Assembly (NCBI GenBank): GCA_934085585.1 | Contig: CAKOHI010000001.1 | Location: 8,549-72,548 of the forward strand | From: an uncultured Bacilli bacterium | Lineage (GTDB): Bacteria; Bacillota_I; Bacilli_A; RF39; UBA660 | Reading direction: 5' to 3' | Length of the DNA: 64,000 nt | In this document: piece after piece, positions 14,357-57,820 of the stretch | How positions within the stretch are numbered: the stretch's first letter is position 1 | Layout: each line of letters opens with the position of its first letter | Notes under the pieces: model-generated | Databases searched by the model: none | What the model was told of the DNA's origin: nothing | Seen by the model: only the letters and a program-made list of their open reading frames with translations | Position numbers and translations under genes: made by a program

Positions 14357-15027
14357 TTTGCCTCCAGCTTATAACCTAAATTTCTTACGGCTTTTATATT
14401 ACATGTTGAACCAATGGCTTTTAGTTTTCTTCTTAAAAATGTTAAAAAAACTTCTAAATTATTTGATTCAATATCACTGTCAATTCCCCAGACTTTATCA
14501 TATATTTGCATTTTAGATAAAATTTGTTCTGGATTATTTAAGAAATATTCTAAAAGTTGAAATTCTTTGCATACTAAATCTATTGAATCATTTGTTTTTT
14601 TACATGTTAATTTTGACTTATCTAAATCAAGTGTTAAGTCTTGATATTCTAATACATTTTTATTTGTTAAATTATTTTTTAATTGAATATTTATTCTTGC
14701 TACAAGCTCATCCATGTGAAATGGTTTAGTAATATAATCATTTGCACCATGTTCTAATCCATCTAATTTATCTTCTATTGTGCTTTTAGCTGTTAACATT
14801 ATTATTTTACTTGTTATGTTATCTTCACGTAATTTCTTTAAAATTTCAAATCCATCCATATTAGGTAGCATTACATCTAGTATTATTAAATCATAAGCAT
14901 TGGTTGTGGCATCAAAATATCCATCTAATCCATCTGTTTTAATATCCACGAGATATTTTTCTTTTTTTAGGCTTGCTTTTATGGCATCTGCTAAATTAAA
15001 TTCGTCTTCAATAATTAAAATTCGCAT
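14353..15027 (-). CDS. OmpR-family response regulator
   Basis: Receiver domain (DLIILDVMLPNMDG, ...LTAKS) plus a C-terminal winged-helix domain. There is a 4-nt overlap with the kinase gene. Confidence 0.92.
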   Translation of the reverse strand: MRILIIEDEFNLADAIKASLKKEKYLVDIKTDGLDGYFDATTNAYDLIILDVMLPNMDGFEILKKLREDNITSKIIMLTAKSTIEDKLDGLEHGANDYITKPFHMDELVARINIQLKNNLTNKNVLEYQDLTLDLDKSKLTCKKTNDSIDLVCKEFQLLEYFLNNPEQILSKMQIYDKVWGIDSDIESNNLEVFLTFLRRKLKAIGSTCNIKAVRNLGYKLEAK

Positions 15028-15144
15028 AGAATCACTCCCTTTGTTTATATAATCATACTAAAATTAAGTGAAAATTAAATGATTATTGTTTTTAAATTTT
15101 TAATTGTTTTAAAAAGGATATGAACTTAATTCATACCCTTTAAA

Positions 15145-16407
15145 TTATTTTATTTTTCTAGCTTCAAGATAATATCTTTTGTCATAAGAATGTCCCATTG
15201 AGAATGTTTTTCTAGGTAATGAGCCATCTAAAATAACTGTTTTAAATAATTCGCTCTTTGGCATTGCATCAAATATGAAGCCAACATTGTTATCATTTTT
15301 GTGTGTTAGTTCTTTAGTTACATCTTCACCATGTATATAATCAACTTTTCCAGCATTTTCTTTTAAATATTCATCTAAAAACATTTGAATTGATCCAACA
15401 GCAATATTTGATTTTGGATTTTCTATATACCATACTTCATCAATATCTTTAGTGATTATTTCAAATTTTTCTCCTTTACCTTCCTTGTTTATTCTATAAT
15501 ATTCTTTTAATTTATTTACTAGATCTTCTGGATTAGTATCGAAAACTACTCTATTTATAGCTTCAAATTCTAATGCTTCACTATGTAAATTTACAATTTC
15601 TACTAGAGCATAACGAGCAGGATGATTCAAGTACTCTTCTTCTTTCATAGTTTTCTTTAAACTTTCATAACAGGCTTTAGCTGTTGCTAATGAATGGTTA
15701 CCATCTCCCATTGCAAATAATAAAACACCTTTATCTTTAACATCGTATTTTTCATTAAATGTTGTTTGATCTGCTAAAAGTTCTAATTTTTTATCAATTT
15801 CATCCATGGTTTCATTATTTAAAAGATATCCTTTTATATGACCACCATTTTTCATTAAATCAAAATCATAAACTACATCTTTTTCAGATACTTTTGTTTT
15901 TAAACTTTCAATAATATCTTTTTTATCATCATCAATTAAAATCATTATGTGAGGCAATTCTAAAGGAGCATTTTCTCTGATCTTTACACGAGGTGGAATT
16001 CTTTCAATTACTGTTTTTTCTGTAGCTCTGATCGGAGTTTGGCTACCAACTTCATAATTATATCCTTCAAGGTCTACAATTCCCATTACTCCTTCACGTA
16101 CTTTGCCATCTTGTCCAGTTCTTTCTAGATAAATCATACTGTCTTTATATTCTTTAAAGAAATCTTCATCAAGTAATTTTTTCATATTAGAATTAATATT
16201 TTCAATTCTTTTATCTACATCGTTTTCTTCAAGGTATATTTCTGGTAATGTAAGATTTAATGTTGATGGATTATTACCAACAATTCTTTCTACATCACTC
16301 CAATATTCTGGTTCACTTGTATATTGGTCACAAGCTACTACACTCCATTTTGTCATATCTGTATTTTTTGGAAGTAGTATATTTCCTCTTTTAAAAGGCA
16401 CGTTCAT
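15145..16407 (-). CDS. DUF1015-family protein
   Basis: 420 aa. N-terminal ...KWSVVACDQYTSEPEYW... and overall length resemble DUF1015 proteins of Firmicutes. Assigned from memory of the family only. Confidence 0.5.
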   Translation of the reverse strand: MNVPFKRGNILLPKNTDMTKWSVVACDQYTSEPEYWSDVERIVGNNPSTLNLTLPEIYLEENDVDKRIENINSNMKKLLDEDFFKEYKDSMIYLERTGQDGKVREGVMGIVDLEGYNYEVGSQTPIRATEKTVIERIPPRVKIRENAPLELPHIMILIDDDKKDIIESLKTKVSEKDVVYDFDLMKNGGHIKGYLLNNETMDEIDKKLELLADQTTFNEKYDVKDKGVLLFAMGDGNHSLATAKACYESLKKTMKEEEYLNHPARYALVEIVNLHSEALEFEAINRVVFDTNPEDLVNKLKEYYRINKEGKGEKFEIITKDIDEVWYIENPKSNIAVGSIQMFLDEYLKENAGKVDYIHGEDVTKELTHKNDNNVGFIFDAMPKSELFKTVILDGSLPRKTFSMGHSYDKRYYLEARKIK

Positions 16408-16534
16408 TATATCATCTCCTTATAAAGGATTATAACATAAATTCATTTAAAATTTAAGAAATTTATTTAAATTCTAATTATTTTAGTTCTTTTTATCCGC
16501 AAACGAAAATAAAATAAAATTTTTAAATGTTTGT

Positions 16535-16563
16535 TTGATTTAATGGCTTGATTTTGCTATAAT
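16535..16563 (+). promoter_or_regulatory. sigma-A-type promoter for the small plus-strand ORF
   Basis: TTGATT (16535-16540), 17-nt spacer, then TGcTATAAT (-10 at 16558-16563, extended TG). Confidence 0.55.
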
Positions 16564-16632
16564 AATTTCCATGGGAACTTTGATTGTTGGGTGTTAACCT
16601 TCTTTATTTTAATAAATGAGGGAGGAATGTTT

Positions 16633-16725
16633 ATGAAGTTACAAACTTTCATTTTGAGGGTTTTGGCATTTATATCATTTGATTTGTTATTAATTATCAT
16701 TTTGATTTTGATAATAAAGAAATAA
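16633..16725 (+). CDS. 30-aa hydrophobic peptide, candidate type I toxin
   Basis: Not in the ORF track. GAGGGAGG sits 7 nt before the ATG. MKLQTFILRVLAFISFDLLLIIILILIIKK is a single TM helix with a KK tail. It has its own promoter and a perfect terminator hairpin. Confidence 0.5.
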   Translation: MKLQTFILRVLAFISFDLLLIIILILIIKK

Positions 16726-16825
16726 TACCCAATCAAGCTTGATTGGGTAAAACCTAAATATATGGCTGACACTCAACGTGCAAAATCGAAGTGTCCCATT
16801 TTTATTTTATGCAAATTTCTTTGCT
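16715..16825 (-). ncRNA. candidate convergent antisense sRNA (antitoxin) overlapping the 3' end of the small-ORF mRNA
   Basis: Minus-strand promoter TTGAAA (16855-16860), 17 nt, TATGAT (16832-16837). The transcript would end at the 16727-16748 hairpin. Boundaries are inferred only. Confidence 0.3.
16727..16748. terminator. perfect 22-nt palindrome, bidirectional terminator
   Basis: acccaatcaagcttgattgggt, with A-rich sequence before it and T-containing sequence after it. Lies 2 nt after the stop of the small ORF. Confidence 0.6.
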
Positions 16826-16871
16826 AGATACATCATATCATAGCTAAATATTTTTTTCAAGTCGAGTTATT

Positions 16872-17969
16872 TTAATTATTTTGTTGATATTTTGTTATGT
16901 CATTTACTCTCATTGCAAAATAAGGAATATCTTTTTTATTTTCTTTTAAGAATAATGCAAATGTATCGTCAATGTTAAAGTGTCTTATTTCTGTTATATC
17001 TCCACTAGCTGTTTTTACAGCATCTAATCCAGCTTCACTTTTTACTTTGCCACCTTTTTCATTTATTTGAAATTCAATACTTTGCATTGCTTTTTCAATG
17101 ACGCATGTATCTTCATCTTGAGCCTTAAATGGTTTGTTTTCAAGTTCTGTAAATTCTTTTTTTACTTTAAAATCCATATATGGAGCTTTAAAATTTTCTT
17201 CATCTAATAACGATTTTGAACCTTTATATTTCTCTTTTTCTTTTAAAAGATTTTCATATATTTCATTAAATGTTACTCCTTTTGGATTCTTATAGAATAT
17301 TAATTCATCATTATCTTTGGTTGATATTGATATAGCAAAATCATCTTCATTATTATAAAACAATACTTTTATTTGTGATCTAACTTTGTCTTTAGATTTT
17401 TCGTCAGTTCCAAAATATTTTATATCCTTAATATCTTTAAATGAACCTTTTTCTAACTCTTTAAATTTGTAATTATATTCAAATTCACGATAGAGCATTG
17501 AATAGAAAAAATATCTTTTACTATCTGGATCATCATCATTATTTAAACTTTTTTCATCCCAATCAAAGTCATTTATAATATCACTTGTTTGATTAAATTT
17601 TTCTTTTATACCTTTTTCAATTTCATCTTTTAATTCTAGTGTTTTTAAACCATATTTTTTGTAATAATAATCTTCACTTATCATTTTGTCTGTAAAATAT
17701 TCTTTGTTTAAATTATCTACCATTTTGCTTTTTTCTTCAAAAACAATGTCTTGCTTTACAAGTTCGTTTTTAAAATCATTCCATACAAGTTGAAATGTTG
17801 GACTCCATGCTGTATCAGTTGTTATTTCGTCATACATTGTTGGAACTACGGTTATTCCTTTTGTTTCTTTTAATGCCTTATTGTTATCATTCTTGTAGAT
17901 TACTCCGATAACAATTGCTATAGTTACTACACCTACTAAAATTGTTTTAATAATCATTTCTTTTTTCAT
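16872..17969 (-). CDS. membrane-anchored serpin-like protein (divergent)
   Basis: N-terminal TM anchor. The C-terminus ...INEKGGKVKSEAGLDAVKTASGD...FNIDDTFALFLKE resembles the serpin hinge and reactive loop. It is a near-match to the serpin signature, with two mismatches. Confidence 0.4.
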   Translation of the reverse strand: MKKEMIIKTILVGVVTIAIVIGVIYKNDNNKALKETKGITVVPTMYDEITTDTAWSPTFQLVWNDFKNELVKQDIVFEEKSKMVDNLNKEYFTDKMISEDYYYKKYGLKTLELKDEIEKGIKEKFNQTSDIINDFDWDEKSLNNDDDPDSKRYFFYSMLYREFEYNYKFKELEKGSFKDIKDIKYFGTDEKSKDKVRSQIKVLFYNNEDDFAISISTKDNDELIFYKNPKGVTFNEIYENLLKEKEKYKGSKSLLDEENFKAPYMDFKVKKEFTELENKPFKAQDEDTCVIEKAMQSIEFQINEKGGKVKSEAGLDAVKTASGDITEIRHFNIDDTFALFLKENKKDIPYFAMRVNDITKYQQNN

Positions 17970-18021
17970 ATTTTCTCCTTATAATTATAATAACATAATT
18001 TAAGAATCATTCAAATCTTTT

Positions 18022-19647
18022 TTAGTCATTTTCTTCTTCAAGCATTTCATAATGTAATACTATATCTCTATCATAATATGTAATACGCCCACTTGGTAAA
18101 AGTAACATTCTATTAATATTTAAATTATCTACAAAATCTAAATTGTGAGAAACTACTAGCATTGTTCCTTCATAATTTTTAAATGTATCGGAAATTATTA
18201 ATTGTGTCATAGGATCCAAATGGTTGGTTGGTTCATCTAAAAGTAATGTATTTGCACCAGTTAAAGATATTTTGGCTAATGCTACTCGGCTTCTTTCTCC
18301 CGGAGATAAAACATCTACTTTTTTAAAAATATCATCTCCAGAAAATAAGAAATTACCTAACATTCTTCTGATTTCATAATCTGCAAGGCCAAAGTTAGCA
18401 AAATTTTCTAAAATTGTTTTATTTGATTCTAATATTTCATGTTCTTGAGCATAATATGCAATATCTGTTTTTTCTGTAATTTCAATATTTCCATCAAGCG
18501 GAGTTAGATATCCCATTATTAAACGAAGTAAAGTGGTTTTACCTATACCATTTTCTCCTACTACTAAAAGTTTTTCTCCACGTGATAAATCAAATGTTAA
18601 ATTTTCATATAAAAGATTTTCCTCATTATAGCCAAAAGTTAAATTATTGCATTTGATTGGGATACTATAGCTTGGTCTATTTATTTTCATATTAAATTTT
18701 GTGTATTTGTTCTTTTTTTCAAGTTCAACTTTTTCATTTTCTAACTTTTCAAGTTTTTTTATCCTGTCTTTAGCAATGTTAGCTTTTTTTTCATTACCAC
18801 GAATATATTTAGCTATTATATTTTTTAATTTTTCTTCTTCTTTTTGTTGACGTTCATATAATCTTTTCTTGGCTAAATCTCTCTCATTTTTTATTTTTAT
18901 ATATTTTTCATAGTTTCCATTGTAAATTTCTATGTTATGTTTTATTTTATCCACATAAAGTGTTTTTTTGGTTACTTCATTTAGAAAATCAACATCATGT
19001 GATATTACCAAAATGATACCATGATAGTTTTTAAGGTAGTCAATAATATAATCTTTAGTATCCAAATCTAGATGATTAGTTGGTTCATCAAGTAACATTA
19101 TTTCTGGATTCGAATATAAAAGTTTTGCAAAAGCTACTTTAGATTTTTGACCACCAGAAATGTTTTTTAATTTTAAATCAAGTAGGGCATCATCTATTTT
19201 CATGCCACTTATTATTTTAAGAAGATGACTTTCAGCATTATATTCGTCATAGTATTCTAAAAGGTCACTAACATGATTTATTTTTTTATAATATTTTTTT
19301 AATTCATATTCATTTTGAATGTTTGCAATGGTTTCATAAAGATTATTTAATTCTTCTTTTAGTTTTTTTATTGGTCTACCTTCTAGTAAATATTCAAATA
19401 CAGTTTCTTCTTCACTACTTGCTTCATCCATAATAACTTGGGGTAAATATCCAAGACTTATTTTGGTGTTTAATGAAATATTTCCGGAATCTGGTATTAA
19501 GTTACCTAATAATATATTAAATAAAGTTGATTTTCCCGCGCCATTAACACCAATTATACCTACTTTATCATTGTTATTTATTTGAAATGATACATTATCA
19601 AAAATAACTTGAGTTCCAAATGACATACTTAAATTTTCTATTTTCAA
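18022..19647 (-). CDS. ABC-F family ATPase (two ABC domains, no TM domain)
   Basis: Two Walker A motifs (GVNGAGKST, GENGIGKTT), two LSGG-type signatures (ISGGQKS, LSPGERS) and a charged linker. Track start is GTG at 19656. The TTG at 19647 has better SD spacing (AGGAAGTGG). Confidence 0.85.
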   Translation of the reverse strand: MKIENLSMSFGTQVIFDNVSFQINNNDKVGIIGVNGAGKSTLFNILLGNLIPDSGNISLNTKISLGYLPQVIMDEASSEEETVFEYLLEGRPIKKLKEELNNLYETIANIQNEYELKKYYKKINHVSDLLEYYDEYNAESHLLKIISGMKIDDALLDLKLKNISGGQKSKVAFAKLLYSNPEIMLLDEPTNHLDLDTKDYIIDYLKNYHGIILVISHDVDFLNEVTKKTLYVDKIKHNIEIYNGNYEKYIKIKNERDLAKKRLYERQQKEEEKLKNIIAKYIRGNEKKANIAKDRIKKLEKLENEKVELEKKNKYTKFNMKINRPSYSIPIKCNNLTFGYNEENLLYENLTFDLSRGEKLLVVGENGIGKTTLLRLIMGYLTPLDGNIEITEKTDIAYYAQEHEILESNKTILENFANFGLADYEIRRMLGNFLFSGDDIFKKVDVLSPGERSRVALAKISLTGANTLLLDEPTNHLDPMTQLIISDTFKNYEGTMLVVSHNLDFVDNLNINRMLLLPSGRITYYDRDIVLHYEMLEEEND

Positions 19648-57414: not shown

Positions 57415-57443
57415 TTTACTGATAGCCACATTTTTGGTATAAT
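57415..57443 (+). promoter_or_regulatory. promoter of the second small-ORF locus
   Basis: TTTACT (57415-57420), 17 nt, TGgTATAAT (-10 at 57438-57443). Confidence 0.45.
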
Positions 57444-57539
57444 AAATATTGAAACATTTGATTGTTGGACGCCTACTACCGGAGTAGTTAGCAATCTCCT
57501 TTAAACGGGGGTTTTGGTAATTATGAAAGGGGTGGTCTT

Positions 57540-57650
57540 ATGAGATTAAAGTCGATTAAGTCTTTTTTAATGATGCTTTTAGCAACATTAAAAAAATGTT
57601 TACTTGTCATTATAAATGTTCAAGTAAACATCCAAATCAATAAAAAGTAG
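57540..57650 (+). CDS. 36-aa peptide, candidate type I toxin (paralogous locus)
   Basis: Not in the ORF track. AAAGGGGTGG lies before the ATG. The peptide is MRLKSIKSFLMMLLATLKKCLLVIINVQVNIQINKK. It is embedded in a highly structured ~230-nt transcript. Confidence 0.45.
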   Translation: MRLKSIKSFLMMLLATLKKCLLVIINVQVNIQINKK

Positions 57651-57711
57651 GCATCTGACTGACAAAAATCAAATGTTTCTTTTTTTTATTATATGAAATG
57701 TTCTTTCATAT
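57588..57711 (-). ncRNA. candidate convergent antisense sRNA overlapping the 3' half of the 36-aa ORF
   Basis: Minus-strand promoter TTGAAA (57741-57746), 17 nt, TAATAT (57718-57723). The perfect 11-bp hairpin atgtttacttg/caagtaaacat (57596-57631) is followed on the minus strand by T7, an intrinsic terminator inside the ORF. Confidence 0.35.
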
Positions 57712-57820
57712 ATACCTATATTATCATATATTTAATGGTATTTCAAGTTATTTGATTATGAATTCTTTATCGTTTTTTAAATGTACTAACAATTTCAAAA
57801 TTTAGTTAATTGTAAATCAA

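Follow-up and report, generated by a model that had tools for sequence, protein, structure and literature searches.

The Bacillus subtilis toxins BsrG and TxpA are 38 and 59 amino acids (aa) long, respectively. In the B. subtilis toxin-antitoxin (TA) systems of type I with 3'-overlapping RNAs, first contact is made through a loop of the antitoxin small RNA (sRNA) and decay is assisted by RNase III (PMC3834814; PMC8594479, T1TAdb), with SR4/bsrG as the precedent for a translational switch (PMC3834814). The AapA1 peptide is shorter, at 30 aa, and its system relies on loop-loop recognition and on decay by RNase III (PMC5416894).

We examined a locus with features of both designs within the window, which here means the whole 64,000-nucleotide stretch of DNA that was analyzed. 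This module (locus 1) fills the entire 464-bp gap between two minus-strand genes, one encoding a 420-aa protein (15145-16407) and the other a 365-aa membrane-anchored, serpin-like protein (16872-17969). From the sequence evidence, we consider locus 1 to be a chromosomal type I TA-like module, belonging to a lineage-specific family, with a probability of about 0.75. The family appears to be undescribed because no Rfam, Pfam, or NCBIfam family was matched. The first-pass annotation of this DNA had likened the locus to txpA/RatA and bsrG/SR4, and the layout on which that comparison was based (a small hydrophobic ORF, a sequestered Shine-Dalgarno sequence (SD), and a convergent, 3'-overlapping sRNA) holds at the locus and family-wide. 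The features of the locus are listed in Table 1.

Table 1. Predicted features of locus 1, with positions in the window.
Feature	Position	Strand	Basis
Toxin promoter: TTGATT (16535-16540), 17-nt spacer, extended -10 TGcTATAAT (16555-16563)	16535-16563	+	Consensus scan
5' arm of mRNA terminal helix, AUGGGAACUUUGAUUGUUGGGUGUUAA	16571-16597	+	MFE fold; covariation over 65 loci
SD-burying hairpin, CCTTCTTTATTT/AAATGAGGGAGG (also given as CCUUCUUUAUUU/AAAUGAGGGAGG)	16598-16625	+	Scan, MFE fold
30-codon ORF, MKLQTFILRVLAFISFDLLLIIILILIIKK plus stop; putative toxin, one TM helix, GRAVY 1.93	16633-16725	+	ORF list
Palindrome, TACCCAATCAAGCTTGATTGGGTA	16726-16749	+	Read from sequence
Intrinsic terminator of the antisense RNA: stem-loop 16749-16726, then UUAUUUCUUU (16725-16716)	16716-16749	-	Scan, 10 pairs
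Antisense sRNA, ~110 nt, putative antitoxin	16716-16825	-	Covariance model R1
Variable single-stranded linker between two hairpins	16750-16763		Least conserved block, alignment A2 columns 221-245
3' arm of mRNA terminal helix, GGCUGACACUCAAC...AAAUCGAAGUGUCCCAU	16764-16799	+	Fold, covariation, accessibility
T-run TTTTTATTTTA, probable toxin mRNA 3' end	16799-16809	+	Read from sequence
sRNA promoter: TTGAAA (16860-16855), 17-nt spacer, TGaTATGAT (-10 at 16837-16832)	16832-16860	-	Scan

The promoter that the first-pass annotation had placed upstream of the ORF scored 10 of 12, with the TG element, in our consensus scan. The same promoter arrangement was found in about 100 family members, 5-7 nt upstream of a conserved (A/U)GGAAC start. 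Transcription is predicted to begin at ~16571 and to produce a leader of 62 nt (~65 nt in the first-pass annotation), and the leader hairpin buries the SD as had been suggested. The SD itself (GAGGGAGG, 16618-16625) lies inside a stem of 12 pairs (consensus scan) with a predicted probability of being unpaired of 0.001. This hairpin corresponds to helices 4-5 of the family fold, where compensatory changes were present among the 65 aligned loci. The leader motif TTTGATTGTTGG had also been recommended as a handle for finding further copies; 19 matches with up to two mismatches were found against 12.8 expected, so the motif on its own is not over-represented. The sole other exact copy, at 57457, is in the leader of a paralogous locus (locus 2). 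The antisense RNA proved to be the better search handle.

The ORF encodes the 30-aa peptide with one TM helix that had been reported previously, except that its start codon lies at 16633, a base before the position that had been implied. An ATG 6 bases further upstream was considered as the start and rejected for being too near the SD. Locus 1 thus carries the kind of gene that defines a type I toxin, a short hydrophobic-peptide ORF (about 20-60 aa) with its own SD and promoter. Among the 121 loci anchored by the sRNA, 89 had a convergent, SD-preceded hydrophobic ORF of 20-33 aa, and these peptides form two subfamilies with the consensus sequences MKTKTFILKVLKLIAIILFLLIIMIVVIKK (subfamily A) and MNKKDFLILSLVILIFLLVLLLFIVLI (subfamily B). 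The peptide of locus 1 is a diverged member of subfamily A, with ~50% identity to the subfamily consensus and an Asp in the helix. In the subfamily B toxin promoters (e.g., L077, L095, L111), the -35/-10 spacer is unusually conserved (GAACAAATGTTTGATATAAT) and holds a small palindrome, AACA-nn-TGTT, which could be a transcription factor operator or simply extended -10 context.

The alignment of 65 full-length mRNAs gave evidence for the coding capacity of the plus strand. The near-invariant columns of the ORF are T residues spaced by three, at the second codon positions of the plus frame, which argues that hydrophobic residues are selected. The open stretch on the antisense strand ranges from 33 to 78 codons and differs between loci, and conservation tracks the plus-strand frame; the 71-aa minus-strand ORF is thus an artefact, as the first-pass annotation had stated. 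Pfam and NCBIfam scans of five peptides returned only noise below the cut-off and no toxin family at E ≤ 10. A potential pairing of the ORF end (AAUAAAGAA) with the anti-SD, seen at locus 1, was dropped after inspection by eye found it absent from subfamily B.

The palindrome downstream of the ORF had been interpreted as a terminator common to both transcripts. It is present and would end the minus-strand RNA, but the T-run follows it on the minus strand only (TTATTTCTTT) and the plus strand continues AAAACCTAAA; the palindrome is therefore the terminator of the sRNA and not a shared one. Its tail overlaps the toxin stop codon, the last two complete codons, and one base of a third. Locus 1 has its own terminator sequence (ACCCAATCAAGCTTGATTGGGT), and the terminator stem covaries in the family (helix 9, with compensatory change in 10 of 11 pairs). 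Judging from the sequence, the plus transcript most likely ends at the T-run at 16799-16809, which has a weak terminator hairpin upstream of it (GACACT...AGTGTC, 16768-16796). All family members share this mRNA end as CC(A/T)TTTTTATTTT, with ...AAUGUUCC followed by the U-run. With the mRNA reading on to this position, the two RNAs would overlap by ~93 nt and not merely at a shared hairpin.

The predicted mRNA (16570-16812) folds at -78.1 kcal/mol compared with -45.3 ± 4.0 kcal/mol for shuffled sequences (z = -8.3). In the MFE fold, its first 27 nt pair with 16764-16799 in a terminal helix, in which an internal loop of the 3' arm (CGUGCAAAA, 16777-16785) is predicted to be open. The linker preceding the 3' arm is predicted to be unpaired in the mRNA and may carry specificity between paralogous modules. 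A pairing of the leader with the palindrome's left arm had been proposed before, and it too covaries family-wide (74.9% paired, compared with 31-57% with slid partners). By subfamily, the diagonal energies of this pairing were -12.6 to -14.1 kcal/mol, and the off-diagonal ones among the three multi-member groups lay mostly at -4.7 to -7.8 kcal/mol. The main partner of the leader, however, is the segment 40 nt further downstream. Since both pairings covary, the leader core (UUGAUUGUUGGGU), which lies inside the 5' arm and is able to pair with either the palindrome's left arm or the 3' arm, appears from sequence to have two alternative partners.

The minus-strand promoter was found where the first-pass annotation had placed it and scored 10 of 12 with TG in the consensus scan. 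All seven full-length copies in the genome have TTGACA or TTGAAA, a spacer of ~17 nt, and TAnnAT at an equal distance from a conserved GUAUnUAGCAAAG. The minus-strand RNA of ~110 nt, previously proposed to end at the palindrome, is predicted to run from ~16825 to ~16716, and it comprises a 5' hairpin (GCAAAGAAAUUUGC, 16824-16811), an A-rich spacer, hairpin 2, and the terminator. It folds into three hairpins at -32.2 kcal/mol compared with -18.9 ± 3.1 kcal/mol for shuffles (z = -4.3). A covariance model (R1) built from seven sRNA copies recovered the sRNA of locus 1 with 107 bits (E = 3e-17). No Rfam match was found at E ≤ 10 over 15000-18500, nor at E ≤ 1 for six paralogous loci except for tRNAs.

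The ~93-nt overlap of the sRNA with the mRNA is perfectly complementary and covers the mRNA 3' UTR, most importantly the 3' arm of the terminal helix. As the body of the sRNA is complementary to this arm, hairpin 2 has the same sense as the mRNA leader and is its sequence mimic, not its complement. The best joint accessibility of the two RNAs is predicted at 16776-16786, where the loop of sRNA hairpin 2 faces the internal loop of the terminal helix. The second defining component of a type I TA system, a gene whose small antisense RNA is complementary to the toxin mRNA, is therefore predicted at locus 1.

Family-wide covariation supported these folds. RNAalifold recovered the terminal 5'-3' helix, the SD hairpin, and the terminator hairpin from the 65 mRNAs, and 87.7% of cells were paired in the consensus fold compared with at most 48% when partners were slid. 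Double-sided (compensatory) changes were found in 34 of 49 pairs and the observed values were reached by none of 500 shuffles, although the relatedness of the aligned sequences inflates these statistics. The terminal helix alone (helices 1-3 of the consensus) was 93.7% paired, with 8 of 12 pairs compensated. The energy of the cognate 5'/3' duplex was -30 to -45 kcal/mol at 19 loci, and a shuffled leader gave -13.9 ± 3.1 kcal/mol. The helix is also retained, in a different sequence, by the most divergent member (-30.4 kcal/mol cognate versus -10.7 kcal/mol non-cognate).

At the DNA level, the leader and the 3' arm are inverted repeats of ~30 bp around the ORF, and these could be the terminal inverted repeats of a miniature mobile element whose copies arose by transposition. 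The many copies per genome and the proximity of several copies to tRNA genes would agree with such an origin. The pairing is strand-specific, however. The toxin strand gives the stabler helix at 67 of 68 loci (-34.4 versus -26.6 kcal/mol), with 185 G-U pairs on the toxin strand compared with 51 on the other, where each G-U becomes an A-C. This asymmetry indicates that the helix is an RNA feature of the plus transcript and not a DNA terminal repeat, and on this basis the reading as a MITE, or as terminal inverted repeats, was rejected. The repeats also begin precisely where transcription is predicted to start, conserved promoters and the sRNA 5' hairpin are found outside of them, and the interior is a conserved ORF with a terminator. 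We therefore give a mobile element hardly any credence.

We also evaluated whether the 3' UTR alters access to the SD. When 67 mRNAs were folded by partition function, once with the 3' UTR and once lacking it, no consistent change was observed at the SD (mean accessibility of 0.18 with and 0.22 without the 3' UTR). A switch at the SD like that of bsrG/SR4 or AapA1 was thus not supported by these predictions, and decay of the message is only the default assumption as a result.

Locus 1 is one of ~10 related modules in a genome of 1.2 Mb and 26% G+C, and its 3' half is repeated within that genome. Full paralogous modules are present at four sites, namely a tandem pair on C3, which encodes MYK(K/R)DFLILGLWIIIILLIL..., and the modules at C4:56873 (peptide MTKDGIIIGLWLIIILLILVLLLK) and C5:14359. 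The sRNA model found eight copies in the source genome. In our first sample, its matches were confined to relatives of this genome: they were found in 33 of the 55 species sampled from the genus and in 35 of the 60 family genomes, and the 40 genomes drawn from 21 other families had none. When the order was sampled evenly, 84 of 149 genomes and 50 of 86 genera were matched, and individual genomes had as many as 17 copies. Across 185,579 species genomes, a scan for an exact pattern matched at least 119 contigs, among them a complete chromosome of 1.34 Mb. Nearly all of these contigs are labelled as metagenome-assembled genomes of uncultured gut Bacilli, Tenericutes, or Erysipelotrichaceae, with a few exceptions titled Clostridium sp., Bacillales, Muribaculaceae, or "bacterium." The hosts named in the matches include rabbit, goat, water deer, mouse, and Hadza human. 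Together, these searches place the module in hundreds of related genomes, and this recurrence, like the fold energies, speaks against a chance pattern at locus 1.

Several modules are located ~100-150 nt from tRNA genes (L022 1347-1420, L027 1380-1450, the 3' end of L026, and G000:C4:104629-105118), which hints at preferred insertion or duplication sites. We also observed a third subfamily with three copies, at G000:C10:14440-14860 and G000:C4:18940-19340 (both on the minus strand) and at 57415-57746 of the window (locus 2). It has a longer leader, in which AUGGAAACAAUUUGAUUGUUGAGUGUUACC pairs with GGUAACAUUCAAC...AAAUGUUUCC and the U-run, as well as a convergent sRNA. Its product is a cationic, amphipathic peptide of 36 aa (MVVKRFKNFLVKLLRSLKKCLFVIVNIQINIQINKR) instead of a TM helix.

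The peptide gene and the sRNA differ in how often each occurs without the other. All 15 loci anchored by the leader carry a convergent sRNA 130-250 nt downstream (the search pattern caught only the AATAAGTTG variant, and the co-occurrence test rests on these 15 loci), and 32 of the 121 sRNA-anchored loci, about a quarter, lack an intact peptide ORF. Finding the sRNA without the ORF but never the leader without the sRNA is, as far as the sequences can tell, the imbalance that a toxin-antitoxin pair should show. In other genomes, two orthologues of locus 1 (L019, at G011:C1:205202-208318, and L153) have a TTA-to-TAA change at codon 19 (MKFKTFFLRGLAFISFDL*), and their promoters, leader, terminal helix, and sRNA are still intact despite the premature stop. 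Because the peptide of locus 1 is diverged and has such pseudogene orthologues, it may itself be weak or decaying.

Two sRNA copies elsewhere in the source genome illustrate other forms of the locus. An orphan sRNA directly after a CDS (G000:C4:12763-13247; L002 1500-1640) is 84% identical to the sRNA of locus 1 and has the same terminator, ACCCAATCA(A/G)GC(T/C)TGATTGGG, with neither toxin ORF nor leader. Locus 1 could receive additional antitoxin from it in trans. At G000:C4:104629-105118 (minus strand), the sRNA is kept beside a tRNA gene, the toxin promoter and leader are lost, and the toxin ORF is frameshifted in an A-run, where one extra A would give MKKILKLIAIILLLSTLLVLAIKK.

Copies that stand alone, together with the 5' part of the sRNA being the most conserved element, could also mean that the sRNA is the conserved unit, a family of trans-acting riboregulators for which the adjacent small ORFs are secondary targets or incidental. 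We regard this as very improbable. The stand-alone copies keep remnants of the toxin 3' end or frameshifted ORFs and thus look like decay products, the body of the sRNA covaries with the leader and terminator of its cognate mRNA, and the conservation of the ORF is codon-periodic.

An alternative with somewhat more in its favor, though still unlikely, is that the peptide is a harmless small membrane protein, such as a regulator or a subunit of a membrane complex, under cis-antisense control, with the RNA architecture tuning expression instead of guarding against a poison. Non-toxic membrane proteins of 20-40 aa are numerous in bacteria. The loci also sit in core intergenic regions and not on obvious mobile elements, and the third subfamily uses the same scaffold for a peptide that is not strongly hydrophobic. 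A housekeeping small protein, however, would be expected to be single-copy and syntenic, and these modules form a multi-copy family with tandem duplication and a patchy distribution among close species. Furthermore, the peptide genes are often lost or broken where the sRNA is kept, none was seen without the sRNA at the leader-anchored loci, and the message has both translational and structural locks. Tandem duplication and patchiness would instead fit selfish, addictive modules, in keeping with the TA-like reading that we prefer. Against this reading, the Pfam and NCBIfam scans linked the peptide by homology to no proven toxin.

For a TA-like module, the following mechanism can be proposed. 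The toxin message would be a plus-strand mRNA of ~235 nt encoding a single-helix membrane peptide. In silico it is doubly locked, by the local hairpin over the SD and by a 5' end that is paired just before the terminal U-run, and the 5'-3' pairing gives a predicted closed, circle-like fold. The terminal helix would guard both ends against RNase J and 3' exonucleases, so that the closed message would be long-lived and poorly translated. The hairpin-2 loop of the sRNA would nucleate on the open internal loop of the terminal helix, and the sRNA would then zip up ~93 bp and displace the mRNA leader. Cleavage of the duplex by RNase III and degradation of the freed ends would follow, and no peptide would therefore be made as long as the sRNA is transcribed. 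Any peptide that was made would be inserted into the membrane and cause depolarization or damage. The alternative pairing of the leader core, with the palindrome's left arm, may represent an intermediate formed during transcription or the state after 3' processing. The source genome has genes for RNase III, RNase Y, and two RNase J paralogues.

A more specific version of this mechanism is offered tentatively, as a possibility that we think somewhat doubtful. Here the antitoxin invades a closed-loop toxin mRNA, with hairpin 2 docking and displacing the leader, and the leader core toggles between its two covarying partners. The displaced leader would leave both mRNA ends open to exonucleases, and the toggling would make the RNA a switch with three states, setting the order of co-transcriptional folding, storage, and destruction. 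Type I antitoxins would then, if this is true, have a new mode of action that combines a hok-like fold-back with Bacillus-like 3' antisense control, and reduced genomes of 1 Mb would maintain it at a very high density of 10-17 copies.

These results add type I TA-like modules to a large, uncultured lineage of small-genome gut bacteria, where contigs from the gut of rabbit, goat, mouse, and human, labelled as Bacilli or as "Tenericutes", carry them unannotated. The density of modules is striking for genomes of 1.0-1.5 Mb (~10 here and up to 17 elsewhere). With the covariance model and the leader and peptide signatures, hundreds of blank intergenic regions could be annotated and spurious antisense ORF calls, such as the 71-aa ORF, removed. 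The covarying 5'-3' closure, with a putative antitoxin aimed at the closing arm, also links the fold-back logic of hok and AapA with the 3'-overlap logic of Bacillus.

Compared with known systems, the locus shares most with the B. subtilis families. Like bsrG/SR4, txpA/RatA, bsrE/SR5, bsrH, and yonT/SR6, it is predicted to have a convergent mRNA and antisense RNA (~100-200 nt in those systems) with overlapping 3' ends, an SD held in a helix, and a host with RNase J/Y-type machinery, and the proposed mechanism shares with them the first contact through an sRNA loop and the RNase III-assisted decay. A 3'-encoded, convergent antisense RNA overlapping the mRNA 3' end, as in TxpA/RatA and BsrG, is thus predicted, but neither peptide nor RNA has sequence or profile similarity to the TxpA and BsrG families in Rfam, Pfam, or NCBIfam, and homology to them was not detected. 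The peptides here are also shorter than the B. subtilis toxins, at 24-30 aa, and lack the long charged tail. The overlap is limited to the 3' UTR and the last codons, whereas in the B. subtilis families it enters the ORF (PMC8594479). Unlike in those systems, the sRNA would be directed at the 3' arm within a conserved 5'-3' terminal helix, and no extension of the SD helix like that caused by SR4 is predicted.

With hok/sok of plasmid R1 and aapA1/IsoA1 of Helicobacter pylori, the locus shares a full-length mRNA locked by long-distance 5'-3' pairing together with SD sequestration, and with AapA1 a peptide of 30 aa; at locus 1, the long-distance interaction that closes the mRNA is predicted from folding and covariation. 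In hok/sok and aapA1/IsoA1, the antisense RNA lies over the ORF or the 5' part, and it does not bind until 3' processing has activated the mRNA. Here, by contrast, it is 3'-encoded and aimed at the locking arm itself, and in the thermodynamic predictions the SD did not open when the 3' UTR was removed. The host is also of Gram-positive type, and there is no homology.

The fst/RNAII (par of pAD1) and sprA1/SprA1as systems resemble locus 1 in a convergent overlap limited to the terminator and 3' UTR, in peptides of ~30 aa, and in a 5' structure that represses translation (PMC8594479). In fst and sprA1, the 5' part of the sRNA pairs with the toxin translation-initiation region through repeats, whereas the sRNA here mimics the leader. 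The terminator is not bidirectional here, with its T-run on the minus strand only, and neither the pairing outside the overlap through repeats nor the bidirectional terminator that mark Fst/SprA1 was found. The Fst-type peptide signature was absent, and Pfam and Rfam gave no match. Without homology to the txpA, bsrG, or fst families, the likeness to them appears from the sequences to be one of design and not of membership. By design, then, the B. subtilis 3'-overlapping systems are the closest to locus 1, which has its fold-back in common with hok and AapA1 and its ORF-sparing overlap in common with fst and sprA1.
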